DNA of 61,216 bases from Legionellales bacterium (lineage in GTDB: Bacteria > Pseudomonadota > Gammaproteobacteria > UBA1113), in contig PAMH01000022.1 in assembly GCA_002707205.1 (NCBI GenBank), positions 277 to 61,492 on the forward strand. The letters are read 5' to 3'. The notes under the pieces are model-generated. The model had not been told where the DNA came from. It did no database searches and saw nothing but the letters and a program-made list of their open reading frames with translations. A program made the translations under genes and the position numbers. Shown here one piece after another: positions 1,555 through 44,000 of this stretch (position 1 is the stretch's first letter; the number at the start of each line of letters is the position of its first letter).

Positions 1555-2066
1555 ATATATTTATAGTAAAAAAACAACGAGCAGCAACTTTAGCGATTGG
1601 CTTAATTATTTTATTTGTAATGACATTAATTGGTACTACAGCATTGCAAACAACGGCATTGGAAGAAAAAATTACGGCTAATTTGAATGATACTAACTTA
1701 GCTATGGAATCAGCAGATAGTGCATTGAGAGATGCTGAGCGGCGAATTGAGGCATTAACAAATACCAGCACTTTTGGGCGCTCAGGCGGGCTGTATACGC
1801 AAGGTAATGCGCCAGATCCATTTGCTGCAAGTACTTGGACTGGCTCAAATTCTTTTACGGCAACAGCAATTCCTGGTGTTGTAACTCCCCGTTATTTTAT
1901 AGAAGAGGTTGGTACTTACGGAGGAGGTACAGATATTAATGTTTACAATTACGGACAAGACCCACGAGGTGGCAGTGTTACTGTTTTTAGAATTGTCTCA
2001 CGTGGTACGGGTGGCACGGGCACAGCAGATGTGATGTTAGAAAGTTTTTATGGAAAACAGTTTTAA
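1551..2066 (+). CDS. pilX: type IV pilus minor pilin PilX
   Basis: Pilin-like hydrophobic N-terminus lacking Glu5 (normal for PilX), 'LEEKITAN..D...AMESADSALRDAE', C-terminal 'FRIVSRGTGG...VMLES.Y'; ATGA overlap with pilW. Confidence 0.88.
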   Translation: MNIFIVKKQRAATLAIGLIILFVMTLIGTTALQTTALEEKITANLNDTNLAMESADSALRDAERRIEALTNTSTFGRSGGLYTQGNAPDPFAASTWTGSNSFTATAIPGVVTPRYFIEEVGTYGGGTDINVYNYGQDPRGGSVTVFRIVSRGTGGTGTADVMLESFYGKQF

Positions 2067-2072
2067 ATGGGC

Positions 2073-2101
2073 ATTTCACATGTTGAAGTCGTTTGGGTAT
2101 A
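2073..2101. repeat. isolated terminal (TIR) fragment of ERIC-like palindromic MITE
   Basis: atttcacatgttgaagtcgtttgggtata aligns with the right end of the element at 32065-32223 (atttcgcattttggagtagtttgggtata). Confidence 0.65.
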
Positions 2102-2130
2102 TACTTTAAGTAATAGAACAGGAAAAAATC

Positions 2131-5094
2131 GTGTTTTGCGTTAAGGTAAAAAATAAACTTAATCAAATCTTAATAAGTACTTTGCTTAGTATTTGCTTCA
2201 TATGGAGTACCTTGTTACACGCACAACCCATTGCGCTATCTGATGGTCCCATTTTAGATTCTGCCGCTGTGCCGCCTAACATCATGTTTTTGATTGATAG
2301 CTCAGGCTCTATGGGTACACGTTTACCTAATTCAAACGATACACGACTTGAAGTTGCGCAAGATGCTGCAATTACACTTATTGATGCGTTGACAGATGTG
2401 CGCGTTGGATTAGCCATTTTTAATGGCAACGATGGTGCAAGAATTTTAGTCGGTATTGACGATATTGAAGATAATCGTCGAACATTAACCAGAGAAATTG
2501 AATCAATACGCGCAAGTGGTAATACGCCGCTTGCTGAATCTTTACAGCAAATTGGGCGTTACTTTGTGCAAGGACATGATGGCACATTGGTTTTATACCC
2601 TGAGCAAGATAATGAAACTAGAAAATCAGCCTACACGGTCTTTGATCGTACACCGGCTTATGAACGTGGTGTCAACCAACAATCGCCAATACAGTATTAC
2701 TGTCAAAAAAGTTTTGTTTTGATGCTAACCGATGGTGAGCCAACACAGGATAGAGATATCTCAGCCAGCAGTGGATTGCAAGATTACGACAACGATTGCG
2801 CTAGTCGAGAACCGCCTTGTGAAAATGCACAGCAAGGACAACCTGCGTTACCAAGCTATGATATGAAACCACCTGGCAGTGGTTATACCTACTCGTCAAC
2901 AGGCAGTGATTATTTAGATGATGTAGCAAATGCTTTATTTGATATTGATTTGCGGCCTGACTTGATTCCGCCAGAAGATGTCGTGAAAAAAAATAATGTT
3001 GCAACTTATCCGATTGGATTTGCGGCAGCAGGTTTACGAGATAATCCACTCATGCAAGATACGGCAGATAATGGTGGCGGACAATATTTATATGCGGATG
3101 ATGCCGATTCACTTGTTGCTGCATTTAACTCAGCAGCGGCAGCAATTTTAACACAAATCAGCACGGCTGCATCAGTGGCTTTTAGCACTATTTCTTTAAC
3201 AACAGATTCTGCCGCTTATCTCGTACAATACAATACTAATAAGTGGAGTGGAAATCTTGTCAAAGTAAATTTAACATCAACCGGTGAAATTTCTGGTATT
3301 GCTTGGGAAGCTGCATCTATTTTAGATAATACCTTACCTGGTAGTCGATTAATTTTTACTTATAATCGTGATACTGCATCAGCAGTTAATTTTAAAACAT
3401 TACGTGATTTGTCACTAGAGCAAATAATAGACTTATCGGGTGGTTTTTTCTTTAATAGGGGACAAGAACGTATTGATTATTTAAGAGGCGATCGCAGTCT
3501 AGAGGGGCGCGGCTTTAGAGTACGTGACAGTGTGTTTGGGGATGTGATTAATTCATCGCCGGTGGTTGTCTCAGAGCCTGATTCAAATTGGCCAGATACC
3601 GCACCTTTTCCAACTGGCAATAATAAATATTCTCTTTTTAAATCACAAAATGAAGATCGGGCACCGGTGGTTTATGTAGGTGCAAACGATGGTATGTTAC
3701 ATGGTTTTGATGGTGGTTCAGGCCAAGAACTTATGGCTTATATTCCATCTAGTATTTTTTCGATCAATAACAATGAAGGCTTGCACTATCTTACTGATCC
3801 TGATTATGAACATCGGTTTTATGTCGATTTAACGCCTACAGTTGCAGACGCATATATCAAAACAAATGGTGGCGGTACTGCTGATTGGCACACAGTATTA
3901 ATCGGTGGAAATCGAAATGGTGGGCGAGGCTATTTTGCTTTGGATGTTACTAACCCTAATCAATTCTCGGCAGGAAATATTAATAATACTTTATTGTGGG
4001 AATTTACTTCACGGGATGATGCACGTTTAGGTAAGACTTATAGTCAGCCCGTGATTGGCTTAATGAATAACGGACGTTGGGCGGCTATTTTTGGTAATGG
4101 TTATAATGCAACAGGTACGAATGATGCTCAGTTATTTATTGTTTATTTAGATGGTGGTGAAAATGGTGAATGGCAAGAAGGGCGAGACTACATCGTTATT
4201 GATACAGAGCAAGGTAATCTTGGTAACCCAAATGGTTTGACTTCCCCAGGTGCTGTTGATTTGGACGGCAATGGTACGATTGATAGAATTTATGCAGGTG
4301 ATTTAGATGGTATGTTATGGGCATTTGATGTTTCTAGTAGTTCTTCATCAAATTGGCAAAGTGCTTATGGTAATGGTGGACGACCTAAGCCTTTATTTAA
4401 TGCTCCGAATAATCAATCAGTTACCACACGAGTGACTGTTGTTAAAAATCCAAATGTGGGCGATACAACAGGCAATGCGCCTAATACCATTGTTATGTTT
4501 GGTACGGGTAAATTATTGGCTGCAAATGATAAATTTACCACCACCACAGAAAGCTTCTACGGTATTTGGGATCACGGCGATCAAAATATTCAACGTAATA
4601 AACTGCTTGAACAAACCTATCAAACTACAGGTAACACACGTACGTTAACCGACAATACTATTAATTATCAGGCGGATAATCCCAACCAGTCTGACCAAGG
4701 CTGGTATATTGATTTTGTCGATGGTGAACGAATTATCACTAATCCAGCGACGCGAGGCGGATTTATTTTCTTTAATACGACAATTCCAACCACTGATTCA
4801 CCATGTTCTTTTGGTGGTAGTGGCTGGTTGATGGTTGCAAAAGTAGAAAATGGTGGGCAGCCCAGTGAAGCCGTTTTTGATGTAAATAATGATGACCAGT
4901 TGGATGATAACGATAAGATTAATGATAACTTTGTTTCTGGTTTATTGTATGAGGCTGGCGTCCCTGCTGAATCTAGTTTCCTCGCTGACCAGATGTATAC
5001 AGCAACTTCTAGTGGTGAAATAGATAAACGAAAAATTATTGATTCTGGGGTTAAACGTGGTCGTATCTCGTGGAAAGAAATTCAAAGAAATTAA
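2131..5094 (+). CDS. pilY1: PilY1/PilC pilus tip adhesin (N-terminal vWA domain, C-terminal beta-propeller)
   Basis: Signal peptide, vWA MIDAS (DSSGS...TP...TDG), 'YVGANDGMLHGF', Ca-binding loop DLDGNGTIDRIYAGD, 'GRISWKEI' C-terminus; GTG start. Confidence 0.93.
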   Translation: MFCVKVKNKLNQILISTLLSICFIWSTLLHAQPIALSDGPILDSAAVPPNIMFLIDSSGSMGTRLPNSNDTRLEVAQDAAITLIDALTDVRVGLAIFNGNDGARILVGIDDIEDNRRTLTREIESIRASGNTPLAESLQQIGRYFVQGHDGTLVLYPEQDNETRKSAYTVFDRTPAYERGVNQQSPIQYYCQKSFVLMLTDGEPTQDRDISASSGLQDYDNDCASREPPCENAQQGQPALPSYDMKPPGSGYTYSSTGSDYLDDVANALFDIDLRPDLIPPEDVVKKNNVATYPIGFAAAGLRDNPLMQDTADNGGGQYLYADDADSLVAAFNSAAAAILTQISTAASVAFSTISLTTDSAAYLVQYNTNKWSGNLVKVNLTSTGEISGIAWEAASILDNTLPGSRLIFTYNRDTASAVNFKTLRDLSLEQIIDLSGGFFFNRGQERIDYLRGDRSLEGRGFRVRDSVFGDVINSSPVVVSEPDSNWPDTAPFPTGNNKYSLFKSQNEDRAPVVYVGANDGMLHGFDGGSGQELMAYIPSSIFSINNNEGLHYLTDPDYEHRFYVDLTPTVADAYIKTNGGGTADWHTVLIGGNRNGGRGYFALDVTNPNQFSAGNINNTLLWEFTSRDDARLGKTYSQPVIGLMNNGRWAAIFGNGYNATGTNDAQLFIVYLDGGENGEWQEGRDYIVIDTEQGNLGNPNGLTSPGAVDLDGNGTIDRIYAGDLDGMLWAFDVSSSSSSNWQSAYGNGGRPKPLFNAPNNQSVTTRVTVVKNPNVGDTTGNAPNTIVMFGTGKLLAANDKFTTTTESFYGIWDHGDQNIQRNKLLEQTYQTTGNTRTLTDNTINYQADNPNQSDQGWYIDFVDGERIITNPATRGGFIFFNTTIPTTDSPCSFGGSGWLMVAKVENGGQPSEAVFDVNNDDQLDDNDKINDNFVSGLLYEAGVPAESSFLADQMYTATSSGEIDKRKIIDSGVKRGRISWKEIQRN

Positions 5095-35200: not shown

Positions 35201-38200
35201 ATGCCTAAAAGAACAGATATTCAATCAATTCTTATTATTGGTGCAGGGCCTATTGTTATTGGTCAGGCATGTGAGTTTGATTATTCCGGAGTACAAGCCT
35301 GTAAGGCACTTAGAGAGGAAGGGTATCGTGTTATTTTAGTAAATTCTAACCCAGCAACAATCATGACTGACCCTGAAATGGCTGATGCAATTTATATTGA
35401 GCCTATTCAGTGGCAATATCTGGAAACAATCATTCAAAAAGAAAAACCAGATGCCATTTTACCAACAATGGGTGGACAAACTGCATTAAATTGTGCGTTA
35501 GATTTAGCGCGAGAGGGAATTTTAGATAAGTATCAAGTTGCGTTAATTGGTGCAAGGAAAACGGCGATTGATAAGGCAGAAGATAGAGAACTTTTTAGAA
35601 AAGCTATGCATAATATTGGCTTGGAAGTGCCAACTTCTTATATCGCACATGATTTAACACAAGCCTTCAAAGCACAAGAAAAACTGGGTTACCCTACTGT
35701 TATTCGCCCGTCATTTACGTTAGGTGGCAGTGGTGGCGGTATTGCTTACAATCGTGAAGAATTCATTGAAATTTGTGAGCGTGGTTTAGACTTGTCGCCA
35801 ACTAATGAATTACTTATTGAAGAATCAATTTTAGGTTGGAAAGAATTCGAATTAGAAGTTGTACGTGATTGTAACGATAATTGTATTATCGTTTGTAGCA
35901 TTGAAAATATTGATCCTGTTGGTGTACATACCGGTGATTCAGCCACTGTAGCACCCGCCCAAACTTTAACAGATAAAGAATATCAGATATTAAGAAATGC
36001 ATCGATTGCCATTTTGCGCGAAATTGGGGTTGAGACAGGTGGATCAAATGTACAGTTTGCCATCAATCCTGATAATGGCCGCATGGTTGTCATTGAAATG
36101 AACCCTCGTGTTTCCAGATCATCAGCATTAGCTTCTAAAGCTACAGGTTTTCCAATTGCAAAAGTGGCTGCTAAGTTAGCTGTTGGTTATACACTTGATG
36201 AATTACGTAATGAAATTACACAAGGTATTATTCCTGCATCATTTGAACCTACCATAGACTATGTTGTGACAAAATTACCACGATTTAACTTTGAAAAATT
36301 TCCTAATTGTGATGCGCGTTTAACAACACAAATGAAATCTGTGGGTGAGGCAATGGCTATTGGCCGCACGTTTCAGGAAAGTTTACAAAAGGCGATGTGT
36401 AGTTTAGAAACAGGATTTTATGGTTTTGATACTTTAATCAACCCGACAGATGAGAGTGAAGAAATAAAAACCACTTTGGTTGCAAAATTGAAAACAGCAG
36501 GTGCGTCAAGGCTTTGGTATATCGCAGATGCTTTTCGCTTTGGGATGTCATTAGAGGAAATTGTTAATTTAACAAAAATAGATTTGTGGTTTTTGGCTCA
36601 AATAGAACACTTAATCATAAAGGAAAAACAGCTTAAAGGTAGAAAATATAGCACGCTATCTGCTTCTGATTGGTTAGATTATAAAAAAGCAGGATTTAGC
36701 GATGCTCGTTTAGCCAATTTATTAGATACGGATGAAACACACATAAGACAAGCACTTATGGACTTCTCAATTAATCCTGTATACAAACGGGTTGATAGTT
36801 GCGCGGGTGAATTTTCAACTGAGACCGCTTATTTATATTCAACTTATGAACAGTATTGTGAAGCAAAACCAAGCCATAAACCTAAAGTGATGGTCTTAGG
36901 CAGTGGGCCAAATCGAATCGGACAAGGCATTGAGTTTGATTATTGTTGTGTACATGCTGCATTTGCATTAAAGCAACTTGGTTATGAGACGATCATGGTT
37001 AATTGTAACCCTGAAACAGTATCGACTGATTATGATACGTCAGATAGATTATATTTCGAGCCGTTGTCATTATCACATGTTTTGTCGATTATTCAGCTTG
37101 AAAAACCACAAGGTGTGATTGTGCAATATGGTGGTCAAACACCCTTAAAGTTAGCGCAAAAGCTTGCAGATTTAGGTGTTCCCATTCTTGGCACAACCCC
37201 AGAAAACATACATCTTGCAGAAGATCGTGAGCAGTTTAATCAATTAATTTCACGTTTAGGTTTGAAACAACCAGCAAGCGGCATTGCAAGAACCATTGAA
37301 GAAGGTTTAACAATCGGAGAAAAATTACAGTATCCATTAATGGTAAGACCGTCTTATGTTTTAGGTGGTCGTGCAATGGAAGTTGTTTATAATGCTAAAG
37401 AATTAGCAGATTATTTATTCCATGCATTACATGCCTCTGAACAAACGACTGTTTTAATTGATCGCTTTTTAGATGATGCAATCGAAGTGGATGTTGATGC
37501 CATTTGTGATGGTGAAACTGTTGTTGTTGTGGGCATTATGGAACATATAGAACAAGCAGGGATACATTCTGGCGATTCTGCTTGTTCATTACCACCATAT
37601 CAACTTTCTGAGGTTACTCAGCAACAATTAAAACAACAAGTGACACAGTTAGCTTTATCCTTAAATGTGATTGGTCTGGTCAACGTTCAGTTTGCAATAA
37701 AAGACAATGATATTTATTTGCTAGAAGTGAATCCTCGTGCATCACGTACCGTACCTTTTGTCTCAAAAGCAATAGGATTACCTATCGCCCAACTTGCAAC
37801 TAAAGTTATGTTAGGAAAAAAATTAGATGAAGTATTTCCGCAACCGATAAAACAACCACCATATTTTAGCGTCAAACTTCCTGTTTTCCCTTTCATTAAA
37901 TTTCAAGGTGCTGACCCAATTTTAGGCCCTGAAATGAAATCGACAGGTGAGGTAATGGGGGTTGCGAATGATTTTGGACTCGCCTATGGTAAAGCATTAG
38001 TTGCAGCTGGCATACATTTGCCGGAGAAAGGTAAAGTCTTTTTAAGCGTGCGTGATGCAGATAAGTCTGCCGCTGTTGAAATTGCAAAATCATTATCTCA
38101 ACTGGGTTTTAGTTTATTAGCAACTAAGGGTACAGCAGAACAATTAATAATAAATGGCGTTAGCTGTGAAATGATTAATAAGGTATTAGAAGGCAGTCCA

Positions 38201-38473
38201 CATGTTGTCGATAGCATTAAAAATAATGAAATACAATTTATTATTAATACGACAGAAGGACGACAAGCCATTACGGACTCTTTTGCAATACGTCGAAATG
38301 CTTTGCAATATAAAGTATGTTACACCACTACACTTGCCGGTGCGCGCGCTATGATTGCTGCGATGATGACAAAAAAACAGCAACAAGTAAATGCTTTAAA
38401 AAAATTACATGCGCAAATACCTTTATCTATGGAAGTTAGAGCAAGTGGGACGGTGGATATTGAAGCTATTTGA
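35201..38473 (+). CDS. carB: carbamoyl-phosphate synthase large subunit
   Basis: MPKRTDI...[17 protein letters not shown], duplicated ATP-grasp domains, [22 protein letters not shown] domain. Confidence 0.99.
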
Positions 38474-38552
38474 TAACATTTTACTTTTGTAGATTTCGTT
38501 ATAAGAAGTCATTTTGCTGTAATAAATATAAAGGTCATTAATGCTAAAAAAA

Positions 38553-40016
38553 TTATTGATTTGATTTTCCATTACTCAATTGTTGACGAATATTTTTAAT
38601 TTGTGCATTAATCTTTGCTTTTTCTTCGGTAGTGAGTTTAGGTAACTTTAATGCAACTTGTAATTGTGCCAAAGCCGCAGGTAAATTACCATATTCTACT
38701 AAATAAGCAGCACGGGTTTGATAGGCTTGTGCTAATAATCCTGCTTTTGCTTGCACTCTAGCCACTAAACTATAGGGAATAGGGTCATTGGGATAGTCTA
38801 AGCGATGTTCACGTAAAATATCTAAGGCTTTTTGATATGCTTTTGCGACAAATAGAACATAGGCATACTCAACCATGACAGGGTAACTATCTGGATAAAG
38901 GGCATATGTATTTTCGATAATTGGTAATGCAAGCTCGGGTTTTTGAGCATCAGCAGCAATATCTGCTGCACCCAATTGAAAAATAATTTGTTCAGGGTAA
39001 TTTTTGATAAGTTGTTTCATGAGCGTTAATGCTTTTGAAAACTCCTGATTATTTTGCAGAGCAAGCGCATAGCCATATTCTACCGCATAACGTTGTTTGA
39101 TATTTTTCTTTTGTAAAAGTTGCTGATAGTAGTTAAGGATATCATGCGGATTAGCAGTTGCTATCACACGTAGTCGTTCCTTAATTAAATAGTAATCTTG
39201 AGGGGTTTTATGATGACGAGCTGGATATTGTGCTGCGCGATTTTCTGCATCAGCGATTCGATTTGGCGTTAAAGGGTGATCACTTAAAAGTTGAGGTACT
39301 TTCATATAATAGCGTTCATTATTTTCTAATTTAGTAAAAAAAGCAGGCATGCTATTAGGGTCATAGCCAGCATTTGCCAATAATCGAATACCAACTCTAT
39401 CTGCTTCTTCTTCCATTTGTCGGCTAAAATTAAGCATACTTTGCTGACTACCTGCAACAGTCGTTAGAAGCGCAGCTTCTGCAGCTTCGCCACTTACAGT
39501 ACCTAAGGCAATTGCTGCTAACATGCCCGCGAGTGTTTTATATTTTTGTTTTGAAGCATCGGCTATTTTCCTTGCGATGTGTCCTTGTAATACATGCGCA
39601 ATCTCGTGTGCCATCACAGATGCTAATTCTTCTTCATTACTGGTTGCAAGCATGAGGCCACTATAAATCGCAATATAGCCATCAGGGCCTGCAAAAGCAT
39701 TAATTTGAGGTGAGGCCATAAAGAAAAAATAAAAGTGACCATTATTTTCTTGACCATTTGCGGCGACTAAGCGCATACCTAGATCATTGATGTACTGTCT
39801 ATCAATTGGATCTTCAATAACTTTACCGGAGGCACGTAATTGTTGCATGTATGATTTGCTAAGTGCAGCTTCTTGACTTTGACTAAATACTGCGCGATCT
39901 GATGAGCCTAAGTCTGGCAAATCATCTGCTAAACTTGTCTGAACCATGAATCCTAGACTTACTAGCGCGAGTAAATTTGTTATTCGTTTATATTTTCGAA
40001 TCACGGTCTCTTTCAT
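38553..40016 (-). CDS. bepA: M48 periplasmic metalloprotease/chaperone with TPR domain (BepA/YfgC-like)
   Basis: Signal peptide then LPDLG, INAFA, HEIAH zinc motif, FSRQMEEEADR.G, HPLT..RI; start likely ATG 40016 rather than 40085. Confidence 0.88.
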   Translation of the reverse strand: MKETVIRKYKRITNLLALVSLGFMVQTSLADDLPDLGSSDRAVFSQSQEAALSKSYMQQLRASGKVIEDPIDRQYINDLGMRLVAANGQENNGHFYFFFMASPQINAFAGPDGYIAIYSGLMLATSNEEELASVMAHEIAHVLQGHIARKIADASKQKYKTLAGMLAAIALGTVSGEAAEAALLTTVAGSQQSMLNFSRQMEEEADRVGIRLLANAGYDPNSMPAFFTKLENNERYYMKVPQLLSDHPLTPNRIADAENRAAQYPARHHKTPQDYYLIKERLRVIATANPHDILNYYQQLLQKKNIKQRYAVEYGYALALQNNQEFSKALTLMKQLIKNYPEQIIFQLGAADIAADAQKPELALPIIENTYALYPDSYPVMVEYAYVLFVAKAYQKALDILREHRLDYPNDPIPYSLVARVQAKAGLLAQAYQTRAAYLVEYGNLPAALAQLQVALKLPKLTTEEKAKINAQIKNIRQQLSNGKSNQ

Positions 40017-40098
40017 TGCATTAACATGGTTTAAATATGATATTATCTTAAGATAGCAGTTTTTAAGATTAAATACATCGGGCATTTGGAGCTTAAAG

Positions 40099-40536
40099 AT
40101 GAAAATTATTCATGCACAAGATATTCAATCACCATTTAATTTGGCCATCATTATTAATAGAGATGATAAAGCACGTTATTGTGAAGTATTTGCACATGCA
40201 TTAGTTGAGCGATTTGAAGAACTGGAATTTACTGATGAAAACATCACAATTTTTAATGCTGCATCGATATTAGATCTACCATTGCTTGCTGCTCGGTTAG
40301 CCAAAAAAGCACAATACTCTGCGATCTTGATTGGTGGTTTTTATGGTAAATCTGAGCAGACTGAACAGCAATTAATTCAACAAACTTGTTTTAATTTAGC
40401 AACACAAACAGACACAGCAATTTTATTTAAAAGTTTTGATTTAGTACATATTAATAAATCTCAACTCAATCACGAGGCAAGAGTATTAGCTGAGCGTGCA
40501 TATACAACTGTTTCAATTTTAGGGCAGCTTGATTAA
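40099..40536 (+). CDS. degenerate lumazine synthase (RibH)-fold protein, catalytic residues absent
   Basis: Colinear with RibH: 'FNLAIIINR' (beta1), 'ERFEELEFTDENITIF..ASILDLPLLAARLAKKAQYSAILIGG', 'LATQTDTAILF', C-terminal helix; lacks FN, PGA.E, RG.T.H, G.LTT and K/R motifs. Confidence 0.7.
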   Translation: MKIIHAQDIQSPFNLAIIINRDDKARYCEVFAHALVERFEELEFTDENITIFNAASILDLPLLAARLAKKAQYSAILIGGFYGKSEQTEQQLIQQTCFNLATQTDTAILFKSFDLVHINKSQLNHEARVLAERAYTTVSILGQLD

Positions 40537-40766
40537 TGTCAGGATATGATATACTACTAGATGCGTCTGGTTTGGTTTGCCCGTTTCCAATTTTAAAAAC
40601 TAAAAAAGCAATGTTAGCGATGGAAAAAGGTCAAGTCATTAAAGTGATTTGCACAGATGCCTCTTCTGTGGTGGATTTTGAAAGTTTAGTTGCCGTCTCA
40701 GGTGATACCATGCTGACAAGAGCGCATGATGAGAGTCAGTATGTATTTTTTATCCGAAAAGAATAG
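40536..40766 (+). CDS. TusA/SirA-family sulfur carrier protein
   Basis: LDASGLVCPFPILKTKKA (CPxP), 'TD.SS..DF', 76 aa; start overlaps the upstream stop (TAATG). Confidence 0.92.
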   Translation: MSGYDILLDASGLVCPFPILKTKKAMLAMEKGQVIKVICTDASSVVDFESLVAVSGDTMLTRAHDESQYVFFIRKE

Positions 40767-40862
40767 ATCGTGCATCAATTATTTTAATTGTTTATACTAA
40801 ATAGCAAACTTAAGATTGCCAATAAGGTAATTGGGATATGTTTTTAATCATTGGGAATGAGA

Positions 40863-41933
40863 ATGAATATTGCAAAAAAATGGGTTAAAAAGTATTTCTC
40901 AGATCCTGAAGCGATTATTTTATCTCTTTTATTATTGGCGGCATTGCTATTTATTATTTTTTTAGGTCGAATGCTAGCGCCATTTATTGCTGCCATCATT
41001 TTAGCGTATCTTTTAGAAGGCTTAGTTGTTCGATTAGAGCGTATTAAGTTTCCCCATTGGTTAGCTGTCGTTTGCGTGTTTTTATTATTTTTAAGTATTG
41101 TCGTTTTTGCTTTATTTCTTATTTTACCACTGCTATGGCAGCAAACCATCGCACTAGCCTCTGAATTACCATTGATGGTTAATAAAACACAAACTTTATT
41201 ATTAGAGTTACCACAAAAATATCCTGATTTATTTACCTTAGATCAAGTCACACAAGTGTTAAGTCAACTTAAAGGACAAATGGCACATTTAGGACAAAAA
41301 GTTTTTTCACTTTCAGTCGCCTCAATACCTAATGTCATTGAATTAACGATTTATTTAATTTTAGTGCCTTTGATGATTTATTTTATGCTAATGGATAGGG
41401 ATGTTTTGGTTAATATGTTTACTCGTGTATTACCAAAAGATAAAAAATTATTAACTGAAATTTGGCGAGAAGTCGATCAACAATTTGGTAACTATGTGCG
41501 TGGCAAGGTCTTGGAAATTACCATTGTTGCGGTGATAAGCTATATTGGCTTTGTTTTTTTTCATCTTAATTATGCAATGTTACTCGCTGTCTTGTGTGGA
41601 TTTTCAGTGCTGATACCTTTTATTGGCGTTACTATTGTTACAGTACCTGTTTTTTTAATTGCCTATACACAGTTTGGTTGGTCTACCGATTTAGCTTATG
41701 TAGCTATTTTTTACTCAGCTATTATGGTATTAGATGGCAATGTATTAGTCCCCTTATTATTTTCAGAAGCCGTTAATTTACATCCAGTGATGATTTTGCT
41801 TGCTGTATTACTTTTTGGTGGTATTTGGGGTTTTTGGGGAGTGTTTTTTGCGATTCCATTAGCAACAGTGGTGAAAGCTATTTGTAATGCATGGCCAAGA
41901 CAAGCACATTCTGTTATGGATCACGATGCGTAA
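40863..41933 (+). CDS. AI-2E family transporter (PerM-like)
   Basis: YFSDPEA, LAYLLE, YVRGK..EI, LIPFIG, LDGN.LVP.LFSEAVNLHP, WGFWGVFFAIP; start 40857 or 40863. Confidence 0.92.
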   Translation: MNIAKKWVKKYFSDPEAIILSLLLLAALLFIIFLGRMLAPFIAAIILAYLLEGLVVRLERIKFPHWLAVVCVFLLFLSIVVFALFLILPLLWQQTIALASELPLMVNKTQTLLLELPQKYPDLFTLDQVTQVLSQLKGQMAHLGQKVFSLSVASIPNVIELTIYLILVPLMIYFMLMDRDVLVNMFTRVLPKDKKLLTEIWREVDQQFGNYVRGKVLEITIVAVISYIGFVFFHLNYAMLLAVLCGFSVLIPFIGVTIVTVPVFLIAYTQFGWSTDLAYVAIFYSAIMVLDGNVLVPLLFSEAVNLHPVMILLAVLLFGGIWGFWGVFFAIPLATVVKAICNAWPRQAHSVMDHDA

Positions 41934-41935
41934 AA

Positions 41936-43351
41936 TTATAAAATTTCCGCGGCATGATCGGCAAGTCTGGAGCGTTCACCACGTTTTAATGTCATATGTC
42001 CACTATGTGCCCAGCTTTTAAAATGATCAACCACATAGGTCAAACCAGAGGTGGTTTCAGTTAAATAGGGTGAATCAATTTGTTTAATATCACCTAAACA
42101 AATGACTTTTGTACCAGGCCCTGCACGAGTGATTAAGGTTTTCATTTGTTTTGGGGTAAGATTTTGTGCTTCATCGAAAATAATAAATTTATTTAAAAAA
42201 GTTCGACCACGCATGAAGTTGAGCGAACGTATTTTAATACGATGTTTAAGTAGTTCTTTTGTTGCTTCTTGTTGCCAGTCATCACATTCTTGAAAGCAGT
42301 GTAATACTTCAAGATTATCCATCAGAGCTCCCATCCACGGGGTCATTTTTTCTTCTTCTGTACCAGGCAAAAATCCGATATCATCCGCAACAGGAATGGT
42401 GACACGAGTCATGATAATTTCGCGATAGGTTTGTGCATCTAAGGTTTGTGCCAATGCTGCTGCTAGTGTCAGTAACGTTTTACCCGTACCTGCAATACCT
42501 TGTAAACTGACAAAATCAATATCTGGATTCATCAGTAAATTAAGGGCGTAACTTTGTTCAGCATTGCGTGCGGTAATTCCCCAAACGGCATTTTTTTCTT
42601 GGCGATAATCCGTTGCAAGCTCAATGATAGCACTATTGCCATCAACTTGAAGTACAATTGCCTCCATGCCACTATCATCGGTCATTTGTAAAAACATATT
42701 AGGATACCAGTGCTGTATTCCTTCGCCATTTAAACGATAAAATGTCCGGCCAGAATCTTGCCACGACTCCATTGCTTTGCTATGTTTTTCCCAAAAATCT
42801 TTGGGTAGGCTTAACATGCCAGTATGTAATAATTCAATATCGTCAATGACTTGGTCATTAAAATAATCTTCCGCTGTTATACCTAAAATTTTCGCTTTGA
42901 TGCGAAGATTAATGTCTTTTGAAACAAGAATAATATTGACGTCAGGATGTTCTGCCTCAAGATATAAAACAGTGCTTAAAATACTATTGTCTGGTTTGCT
43001 ACCCGGCAGTGATTGAGGTAGGGCAACAGGAGCTTCATTGATTTGAAAATGTAATATGCCAGAGACTTTTGGTGAGGTTTCTGATAAATTTGCAAATTGG
43101 TTGAGTGCAATGCCTTGATTGATATTTCTTTTCTCTTGGAGGGATAAGAGTTCAGCTAAAAAACGGCTGGATTGACGCGCATTGCGAGCAACTTCACTCA
43201 AGCCTTTTTTTTGATTATCTAATTCTTCAAGCACAACCATTGGTAGATAAACATCATGTTCATGAAAACGAAAAAGGGCTGATGGATCATGTAACAACAC
43301 ATTGGTATCAAGCACAAATAGTTTTTTCTTAGGCACTGATTTATTAGGCAT
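41936..43351 (-). CDS. PIN-PhoH family protein (PhoH2/YlaK-like)
   Basis: PIN motif FVLDTNVLLHDP...VVLEELD...DN.IL...SKDINLR; Walker A GIAGTGKT; RGRT, DEAQN, GD..QID; start moved to ATG 43351 (GGAGG RBS). Confidence 0.94.
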   Translation of the reverse strand: MPNKSVPKKKLFVLDTNVLLHDPSALFRFHEHDVYLPMVVLEELDNQKKGLSEVARNARQSSRFLAELLSLQEKRNINQGIALNQFANLSETSPKVSGILHFQINEAPVALPQSLPGSKPDNSILSTVLYLEAEHPDVNIILVSKDINLRIKAKILGITAEDYFNDQVIDDIELLHTGMLSLPKDFWEKHSKAMESWQDSGRTFYRLNGEGIQHWYPNMFLQMTDDSGMEAIVLQVDGNSAIIELATDYRQEKNAVWGITARNAEQSYALNLLMNPDIDFVSLQGIAGTGKTLLTLAAALAQTLDAQTYREIIMTRVTIPVADDIGFLPGTEEEKMTPWMGALMDNLEVLHCFQECDDWQQEATKELLKHRIKIRSLNFMRGRTFLNKFIIFDEAQNLTPKQMKTLITRAGPGTKVICLGDIKQIDSPYLTETTSGLTYVVDHFKSWAHSGHMTLKRGERSRLADHAAEIL

Positions 43352-43376
43352 ACCATATCCTCCCTTTTCTAAATTA

Positions 43377-43460
43377 TATACCCAAACCACTTCGAGATGC
43401 GAAATTTTAATAAAAAATAAGTTTAAAAATCACGTCCCGAAATGGTTTATTGGAGATATA
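43377..43460. repeat. internally deleted copy of ERIC-like MITE
   Basis: tatacccaaaccacttcgagatgcgaaattttaataaaa closely matches the reverse complement of 32185-32223, followed by a degenerate opposite TIR ending in tata. Confidence 0.75.
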
Positions 43461-43532: not shown

Positions 43533-44000
43533 CTAAGCTAAGTTTTTAACTTCAGCTAAAACTTCTTCAACATGCTCAGGCACTTTAACTTTTCGCCACT
43601 CGCGAACAAGCACACCGTTAGCATCGATTAAAAAAGTACTACGCTCGATACCGCGCACTTTTTTACCATACATATTTTTGTCTTTCATGACAGAGAACAA
43701 ATTACAGATAGTTTCCTCAGGATCTGCAATTAGTTCAAAGGGAAAGTTGAACTTTTCTTTAAACTTTTCATGGCTTTTGATGGTATCTCTTGAAATACCA
43801 AAGACGACTGTATTGTGAGCTAAAAACTCGTCATGATGCGTCCCAAAGTCAATACTTTCTGTTGTGCATCCTGGTGTGTTGTCACGCGGGTAAAAATATA
43901 GAACGACATTTTTGCTTTTATAGTCACTAAGTTTAAATGTGAGCTCAGAGGTTGCCGGTGCTGTAAACGATTTGACTTTTTTTCCTACGGTAATGCTCAT
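43533..44000 (-). CDS. bcp: peroxiredoxin Bcp/PrxQ
   Basis: YFYPRDNTPGCTTE, GISRD...SH..F, GIERSTFLID. Confidence 0.95.
   Translation of the reverse strand: MSITVGKKVKSFTAPATSELTFKLSDYKSKNVVLYFYPRDNTPGCTTESIDFGTHHDEFLAHNTVVFGISRDTIKSHEKFKEKFNFPFELIADPEETICNLFSVMKDKNMYGKKVRGIERSTFLIDANGVLVREWRKVKVPEHVEEVLAEVKNLA

Follow-up and report, generated by a model that had tools for sequence, protein, structure and literature searches.

Introduction

Type I lumazine synthase (RibH; EC 2.5.1.78, represented by the families PF00885 and TIGR00114) is widely used as an assembly scaffold, and its fold also gave rise to the pentameric riboflavin synthase of Archaea. In Brucella, RibH1 and RibH2 are both reported to be active as lumazine synthases in vivo, and at least one of them to be required (PMC2828483).

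The present study deals with a stretch of 61,216 nucleotides from a Legionellales bacterium (GTDB lineage Gammaproteobacteria; UBA1113; assembly GCA_002707205.1, contig PAMH01000022.1, positions 277 to 61,492), which as a whole is called the window below. Between a bepA-like gene and a gene for a TusA-family sulfur carrier, the window has a gene for a RibH-like protein, which we call psRibH. An earlier note, prepared by reading the sequence, had proposed that this protein is a repurposed pseudoenzyme and the best candidate in the window for an undescribed system linked to TusA. Our preferred reading, to which we assign a probability of about 0.62, is that psRibH is a catalytically dead descendant of the original ribH of its bacterial family, which was displaced by a second riboflavin operon and has been retained with an intact frame.

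Among described proteins, psRibH resembles type I RibH in fold, with a template modelling (TM) score of up to 0.84, in length, in the strand at the N-terminus and the helix at the C-terminus, and in the chromosomal slot occupied in relatives. It differs in that all substrate-binding motifs are replaced, in that it falls under both curated thresholds, and in two deletions, one of four residues after the His motif and another in the Arg/Lys loop. As to genomic association, psRibH has no riboflavin gene beside it in the window; since the corresponding slot of relatives contains ribBA-ribH, an association with riboflavin genes would be historical. The archaeal pentameric riboflavin synthase (2b98/2b99) is, like psRibH, a paralogue with the lumazine synthase fold that no longer makes lumazine, but it has gained a new catalytic role in the same pathway, whereas no such role is evident for psRibH and an ordinary ribE is present in the genome. 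Like Brucella, the genome to which the window belongs (G000) carries two paralogues with this fold from different clades; in contrast to the Brucella pair, both members of which are reported to be active (PMC2828483), one of the two copies in G000 is without catalytic residues. Other RibH-like proteins with degraded motifs are found within the same bacterial family, namely the bepA-adjacent copy of genome G006 together with the protein P0013, and tandem open reading frames (ORFs) of genome G009. Unlike psRibH, the G006 copy passes the Pfam threshold (55 bits), and it is followed by a gene for acyl-CoA dehydrogenase. The literature searched, the coverage of which leaves out most subscription journals, gave no description of a lumazine synthase paralogue without catalytic activity and none of a link between ribH and tusA.

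Results

Homology and fold of psRibH

Profile searches and structure prediction identify psRibH securely as a genuine, though sub-threshold, homologue of lumazine synthase with the predicted flavodoxin-like fold of that enzyme. Its scores were 23.7 bits against Pfam DMRL_synthase (PF00885; cut-off 26.7), 16.6 bits against TIGR00114 (cut-off 84.6) and 23 bits against NF009084, the model for type II RibH2 (cut-off 160), whereas two controls, the second RibH of the same genome (145.7 bits) and the RibH of the related genome G005 (157 bits), passed TIGR00114. The best match to psRibH among PDB sequences is a lumazine synthase with an expectation value (E) of 0.86, and with a profile made only from psRibH's own clade, the canonical RibH of G005 is matched with an E of 1.4e-31.

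The AlphaFold2 model of psRibH (predicted local distance difference test 93.4, predicted TM score 0.88) is built of four strand-helix units, followed by a long helix at the C-terminus (residues 120-144). When this model was compared with PDB by Foldseek, 115 chains were found at E <= 0.001, the best having E 1.4e-7. The best 24 of these 115 chains, with TM scores of 0.59-0.84, are lumazine synthases or designs based on them (0.66-0.84), except two chains of archaeal pentameric riboflavin synthase (0.59-0.61). Because the input alignment of AlphaFold2 contained canonical RibH sequences, the single-sequence model in ESM Atlas, with TM 0.88 to a lumazine synthase cluster, serves as an independent check of the fold. 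The RibH fold that the earlier note had read from the translation is thus borne out by Foldseek, the kind of check it had proposed. As a separate observation, two mostly Bacteroidota clusters of ESM Atlas are named after the lumazine synthase domain although PF00885 is found in only 44-48% of their members, and judging from them other divergent lumazine-synthase-like families may exist.

Loss of the catalytic motifs

Motifs were compared on an alignment of 30 sequences (A3), and the segments of psRibH that stand in place of the RibH motifs are listed in Table 1. The roles of SRFN, PGAxE, GETxH, GxLTT and the Arg/Lys residues, as well as the assignment of Phe22, His88, Arg127 and Lys135 in B. 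subtilis, are those which we take to hold for RibH in general. At the position of the catalytic His psRibH has Glu, and F81 and Y82 of the same segment are kept within the clade of psRibH, called the dead clade below. The phosphate-binding Arg/Lys loop (RxGGxxGHKG) is shortened and replaced. All substrate-binding and catalytic motifs are replaced or deleted both in psRibH and in all 10 full-length members of the dead clade, and judged by this alignment psRibH is without the catalytic apparatus of lumazine synthase. Since it falls short of the thresholds and has none of the motifs, psRibH is neither a type I nor a type II lumazine synthase. The loss of motifs claimed by the earlier note was therefore confirmed by A3, while the exact register that it gave for two of the replacements, FN to DD and RGxTxH to YGKSEQ, is alignment-dependent.

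The same slot in related genomes

The order containing the host consists of one family represented by 21 species genomes. A ribH gene was found in the slot next to bepA in seven genomes of the family and on a metagenome contig (L041). It is canonical in G005, G008, G004, G009, G010, G012 and L041 and degenerate in G006. Next to bepA, the gene order is (ribD) ribBA-ribH-(tusA)-(perM) in G005, G008, G004 and L041, with the genes in brackets not present in every case, and ribH-perM without tusA in G009, G010 and G012. G000 has the dead ribH followed by tusA and perM, and G006 has the degenerate ribH followed by the acyl-CoA dehydrogenase gene. In all ten genomes of genus g2, bepA is next to tusA without an intervening ribH and perM follows; in G003 bepA is also next to tusA, in G002 bepA has other neighbours, and G007 gave no bepA match with the query used.

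The canonical RibH proteins in this slot score 164-190 bits. They start with M-R/K-x-I-x-A-E-D-I..FNIAIVVSRFN and end with ..AAYEMVSVLRQI, and psRibH keeps both of these segments, the N-terminus common to psRibH and its relatives being M-K/R-x-I-x-A-E/Q-D-I..FNIAI and the common C-terminal helix ..AYxxVSxxxQ. We consider psRibH to be a relic of the original ribH because the slot of relatives holds a canonical ribH with the same termini and a working operon is present elsewhere in the genome.

These results change the picture given by the earlier note in two respects. It had regarded the gene as a new insertion or system in a neighbourhood normally without ribH. The order bepA, tusA, perM without ribH does occur, in genus g2, but family relatives have a canonical ribH in exactly this slot, and an insertion was not borne out. 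Its statement that no rib genes are nearby is correct within the window and misleading for the locus, which in our reading is a dismantled rib operon.

In G006 (contig C2, locus L011), the degenerate ribH at 1501-1971 overlaps the acyl-CoA dehydrogenase gene at 1965-3134 by 7 nucleotides; the product of the latter belongs to a flavoprotein family. A profile search for related loci found none in genome contigs and one in metagenome contigs, the canonical L041.

Riboflavin genes elsewhere in the genome

A contig of G000 other than that of the window (G000:C27) carries ribD-like, ribE (with two Lum_binding domains), ribBA and ribH genes in a row. The RibH encoded there has 143 amino acids, scores 152.5 bits with Pfam, and keeps every motif; its identity to psRibH is 32% over 63 residues. 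Because this complete rib operon is located on another contig, psRibH is not needed for the riboflavin pathway. The separate canonical ribH for which the earlier note had proposed to look is therefore present, and psRibH is not the working ribH of this genome. Two other roles considered for psRibH were rejected: that of the only ribH, as a canonical ribH is located at G000:C27, and that of a substitute for riboflavin synthase, as ribE is present.

A full-scoring RibH beside ribBA in combination with a weak copy beside bepA was found only in G000 and G006. G009 has a full RibH at its bepA locus and two weak tandem ORFs elsewhere in the genome, and the remaining genomes have one ribH (split across two contig ends in G011 and G014) or none detected. 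The tandem ORFs of G009 (contig C47, locus L037, 1450-1884 and 1891-2223 on the minus strand) are divergent RibH-like sequences of 144 and 110 amino acids with Pfam scores of 55.6 and 37.9 bits. They have SSQVH for SRFN, AGTYEIP for PGAVEIP and SNQDH for GETxH, and the second ORF spans a masked stretch.

The second ribH, which belongs to a different RibH clade and is located beside ribBA, is present in G000, G006 and G002, and the complete order ribD-ribE-ribBA-ribH was found in G000. An unrooted tree was constructed from 58 rows and 158 columns, with L103 excluded. In this tree, psRibH and P0002, P0004, P0005, P0006 and P0008 form a clade of six rows with support 100/99, which joins the bepA-adjacent copy of G006 and P0013 with support 99/84. 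The second RibH sequences of G000, G006 and G002 form a clade of their own (100/99) inside a clade of 27 rows (95/96) that includes RibH of other families of the class, and this clade stands apart from the long-type RibH of the host family.

Conserved positions and a possible remodelling of the pocket

Conservation classes were defined by comparing seven rows of the dead clade with 13 canonical long-type rows of A3. The same residue is conserved in both sets in 15 columns, which include M1, F13, A16, I17, R38, L39, E41, L42, P61, A64, R128, S139 and Q143. Conservation is restricted to canonical RibH in 32 columns and to the dead clade in nine. A further 12 columns have switched from one conserved residue to another (N20, F31, A34, L35, S56, D59, L77, F81, Y82, F113, A127, and E132). 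Several of the switched positions presumably lie in loops of the substrate cleft, as we place them from the canonical structures. This pattern suggests that the pocket was remodelled rather than randomised, while the core of the fold and likely elements of assembly were kept. That the strand at the N-terminus and the helix at the C-terminus are conserved is at most suggestive of an assembly based on pentamers, whether pentamer, decamer or 60-mer.

One extension of the preferred reading, tentative and on balance improbable in our estimation, is that the dead clade is a repurposed oligomer whose rebuilt and conserved cleft (N20, S56, D59, F81, Y82, and F113) would have come to accommodate some other ligand or a protein partner; a flavin-like molecule and the co-translated TusA are conceivable. 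A related alternative, which we regard as unlikely, is that psRibH is a ligand-binding protein or an enzyme of new specificity, holding for example a flavin or a pterin-like compound in its cleft, in parallel to the origin of the archaeal riboflavin synthase. The clade-wide switches in loops that form the canonical pocket would fit this alternative, and so would the appearance of archaeal riboflavin synthase among the structural matches. However, neither the ring-stacking position nor the phosphate-binding loop is constant among members of the clade, there is no evident new set of invariant residues of catalytic type apart from N20, S56 and D59, ribE is already present in the genome, and the positions are assigned to the pocket by reference to lumazine synthase structures rather than by a measured interface.

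Retention versus decay

An exhaustive search among 1.84 billion representative proteins gave 17 proteins at E <= 0.001, and among 5.8 billion proteins the clade profile matched 12 at E <= 1e-10. Two long proteins with weak matches, P0016 and P0019, were set aside as chance matches of low complexity. The dead clade has ten distinct full-length members (137-154 amino acids), all with intact frames, and one fragment, and none of them has the motifs. The members have the same two deletions and the signature MKxIHAQDIKSHFNIA, ALVERLxELEFS, S.LD.P, EYSAIL and ARxLAERAYxxVSIxxQ. Pairwise identity of the ten full-length members is 38-90% with a mean of 46%, the pair P0008/P0020 being 90% identical. 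Across these ten, the tree length is 4.0-5.7 changes per site and 20 of the 143 columns are invariant; the gain of the LG+G4 model over LG is 73.7 log-likelihood units, its alpha being 0.97, indicating strong rate differences between sites.

The dead copies of G000 and G006 are still alignable (E 3e-12). Four genes were compared between these two genomes; each of them is saturated at its synonymous sites (proportion of synonymous differences, pS, 0.71-0.82), and the proportion of nonsynonymous differences (pN) is 0.51 for the dead copy, 0.36 for bepA, 0.33 for ribBA and 0.29 for the second ribH, values which come from one saturated pair in an alignment that itself maximises identity. Neutral sequence at such divergence would be expected to be broken and unalignable. 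The best reading of these comparisons is that psRibH is a retained, fast-evolving and non-catalytic protein that is not simply decaying, and conservation rather than neutral decay is thus upheld by the ten intact frames, the rate heterogeneity, and a pN below the saturated pS.

It is quite unlikely, in our view, that psRibH is a decaying relic without function at the protein level, whose frame stays open only because the ribosomes translating it serve initiation at the next gene, with which it overlaps, or because the time for it to break has been too short. Decay of this kind would fit the position of the dead copy as the fastest-evolving gene of the locus, the graded Pfam scores of the degenerate RibH-like proteins (94.5, 77, 55, 43, 25, 24, 23, 21, and none), the overlap of both dead copies of known DNA context with the start of the next gene, and the loss of the bepA-adjacent copy from G002, which has the second ribH. 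Against it stand the ten frames kept intact over so many amino-acid changes per site, the invariant columns together with the strong rate heterogeneity, the residues conserved specifically in the clade, and a pN well under the saturated pS; selection for an open frame alone would not keep particular amino acids.

Proposed history of the locus

We propose that both kinds of ribH were present in an ancestor of G000, G006 and G002. The second operon would have taken over the supply of riboflavin, and the old operon would have been dismantled with loss of ribD and ribBA. The old ribH would have stayed at the head of a tusA-perM unit, with the inherited TAATG coupling, and would have degenerated in G000 and G006 and been lost from the bepA locus in G002. 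Its product psRibH would probably still form oligomers by way of two conserved elements, the strand at the N-terminus and the helix at the C-terminus, and would act as a non-catalytic binding or scaffold protein with the former substrate pocket remodelled.

Several points weigh against the descent and retention of psRibH as given here. The clade of G000 and the copy of G006 join in the tree via long branches, with stems of 0.79 and 1.75, and because the join connects long branches, independent degeneration in two events, brought together by long-branch attraction, is possible. The origin of the second operon may be either a transfer or an old paralogue. The DNA context is known for two of the dead copies, those of G000 and G006, and tusA is located downstream of one of the two. 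The family is also small, with the above 12 proteins among 5.8 billion, and its rate of evolution is roughly double that of the neighbouring genes; this would also fit weak selection, for example for an open frame ahead of a downstream gene. The pN/pS comparison enters this weighing with the restriction given above.

Relation to TusA

The CPxP Cys of the TusA encoded in the window (Cys15) is invariant in all 14 aligned TusA sequences. Its score against NF001423, the equivalog model for TusA of tRNA thiolation, is 46.2 bits, which is under the cut-off of 78. A second TusA-family gene of the genome (G000:C27:1964-2170, locus L044) gave 76.1 bits with Pfam and 46.9 bits with NF001423, also under 78.

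The junction between ribH and tusA is tight in relatives with a canonical ribH as well: TAATG was found in G005 as in the window, ATGA in L041, and an overlap of 11 nucleotides in G023, a genome from another family of the class. In G023 (locus L013, 1065-1758, minus strand) the order is ribBA-ribH-tusA. As the adjacency of ribH and tusA is also found in this other family, it is older than the family of the window. The same coupling is present with intact RibH in G005, L041 and G023, and it therefore predates the loss of activity; a reading of the tight coupling as an innovation is not supported.

It is distinctly unlikely that psRibH was recruited to bind, cage or regulate the persulfide carrier TusA, the overlap setting a fixed proportion of the two proteins. 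In favour of such a partnership, one can name the TAATG overlap with a single ribosome-binding site upstream, the retention of the psRibH gene under constraint, and the old ribH-tusA adjacency that reaches another family. However, catalytically intact RibH has the same coupling, the dead copy of G006 is followed by the acyl-CoA dehydrogenase gene and not by tusA, and tusA is missing from the ribH-perM arrangement of G009, G010 and G012 just as ribH is from the tusA-perM arrangement of genus g2. A predicted complex of psRibH (alignment A3) and TusA (alignment A4) scored 0.00 against a mark of 0.32 in a prediction made without control runs, and it weighs neither way. The link of psRibH with TusA would thus be inherited synteny and operon history, and a specific partnership is unlikely. 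TusA binding and a nanocompartment, which the earlier note had suggested, as well as a capsid, are unsupported by any result obtained here, and an undescribed TusA-linked system in the window was not borne out.

Very improbable is, finally, a regulatory "poison" subunit that co-assembles with the working RibH and disables active sites between subunits: the active sites of lumazine synthase are formed by two adjacent subunits, and the N-terminal strand and C-terminal helix of psRibH are conserved, but the working RibH is of a different clade, has no 13-residue N-terminal segment, and shares little identity with psRibH (see above).

Layout of the locus

The features of the locus are listed in Table 1. 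The 145-residue and 76-residue ORFs, the GGAG ribosome-binding site and the TAATG overlap are all present as the earlier note had described them.

Table 1. Features of the psRibH locus, with positions in the window
Feature	Position	Strand	Remarks
bepA-like periplasmic M48 protease with tetratricopeptide repeats (TPR)	38553..40085	-	PF01435 117 bits, and TPR families; transcribed divergently from psRibH
GGAG ribosome-binding site	40088..40091	+	read from sequence; 7 nucleotides 5' of the psRibH ATG
psRibH, 145-residue protein with lumazine synthase fold, without catalytic motifs	40099..40536	+	family scans, alignment, model, tree
NRDDK in place of SRFN (substrate ring-stacking Phe loop)	40156..40170	+	residues 20-24; N20 kept in clade
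NAASILDLP in place of WVPGAVEIP	40255..40281	+	residues 53-61; Gly and Glu replaced by S56 and D59, which are conserved specifically in the clade
GGFYGKSEQTEQ in place of LGAVIxGETxHY	40333..40368	+	residues 79-90; followed by the 4-residue deletion
FKSFDL in place of FGVLTT	40426..40443	+	residues 110-115; A3 and conservation classes
C-terminal helix ARvLAERAYttVSIlgQ	40477..40527	+	core R128, Y135, S139 and Q143 kept in dead clade and in canonical RibH of the family
TAATG stop/start overlap of psRibH and tusA	40534..40538	+	TAA 40534-40536, tusA ATG 40536-40538; one base in common
TusA-family sulfur carrier, 76 residues, Cys15 in CPxP	40536..40766	+	PF01206 64.3 bits, cut-off 28.6
perM / AI-2E family transporter	40851..41933	+	PF01594 251.6 bits; start codon uncertain

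Alignments of the bepA product with its homologues start no earlier than about residue 33-51 of the 510-residue ORF. The true start of bepA is probably Met24 (about position 40016), which would leave about 82 nucleotides between bepA and psRibH. The part of the ORF at 40017-40085 is probably an over-long start, and a segment like a signal peptide follows Met24. The flanking genes appear ordinary by sequence and were named by reading their translations: carB-like at 35201-38473, a PIN/PhoH-like ATPase at 41936-43390, and a Bcp-type peroxiredoxin-like gene at 43533-44000. No remnant of a flavin mononucleotide (FMN) riboswitch was found, as Rfam gave no match across the whole window, and the promoter scan was at chance level, with five sites against 5.8 expected.

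The stretch is present in marine metagenome DNA runs of six studies, with three entries among them as possible sources of the assembly. No RNA run carrying it was found among the sequencing runs listed, which are all marine metagenome DNA. For positions 38500-42000, read pieces at low depth were found in four runs from different studies (X5, X8, X12, and X13). The pieces lying fully on the stretch, which are short and of low depth in these four runs, have 0 differences, and no variants are listed.

Discussion

In source databases, one member of the dead clade is named "6,7-dimethyl-8-ribityllumazine synthase" and another "hypothetical protein". Counting genes of this clade as ribH would misstate both the riboflavin capacity and the gene redundancy of the organisms that carry them. 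Several structural matches of psRibH are engineered particles, and if psRibH assembles, a naturally occurring scaffold of this kind, without catalysis and with its cleft remodelled, would have practical interest. Should the tentative reading as a repurposed oligomer be true, psRibH and its relatives would be the first instance in nature of a lumazine synthase that has given up catalysis and has its own function. On the preferred reading, the locus offers a clean and datable example of the passage from an enzyme to a conserved non-enzyme after displacement of its operon by a second one, with intermediates visible in the relatives.

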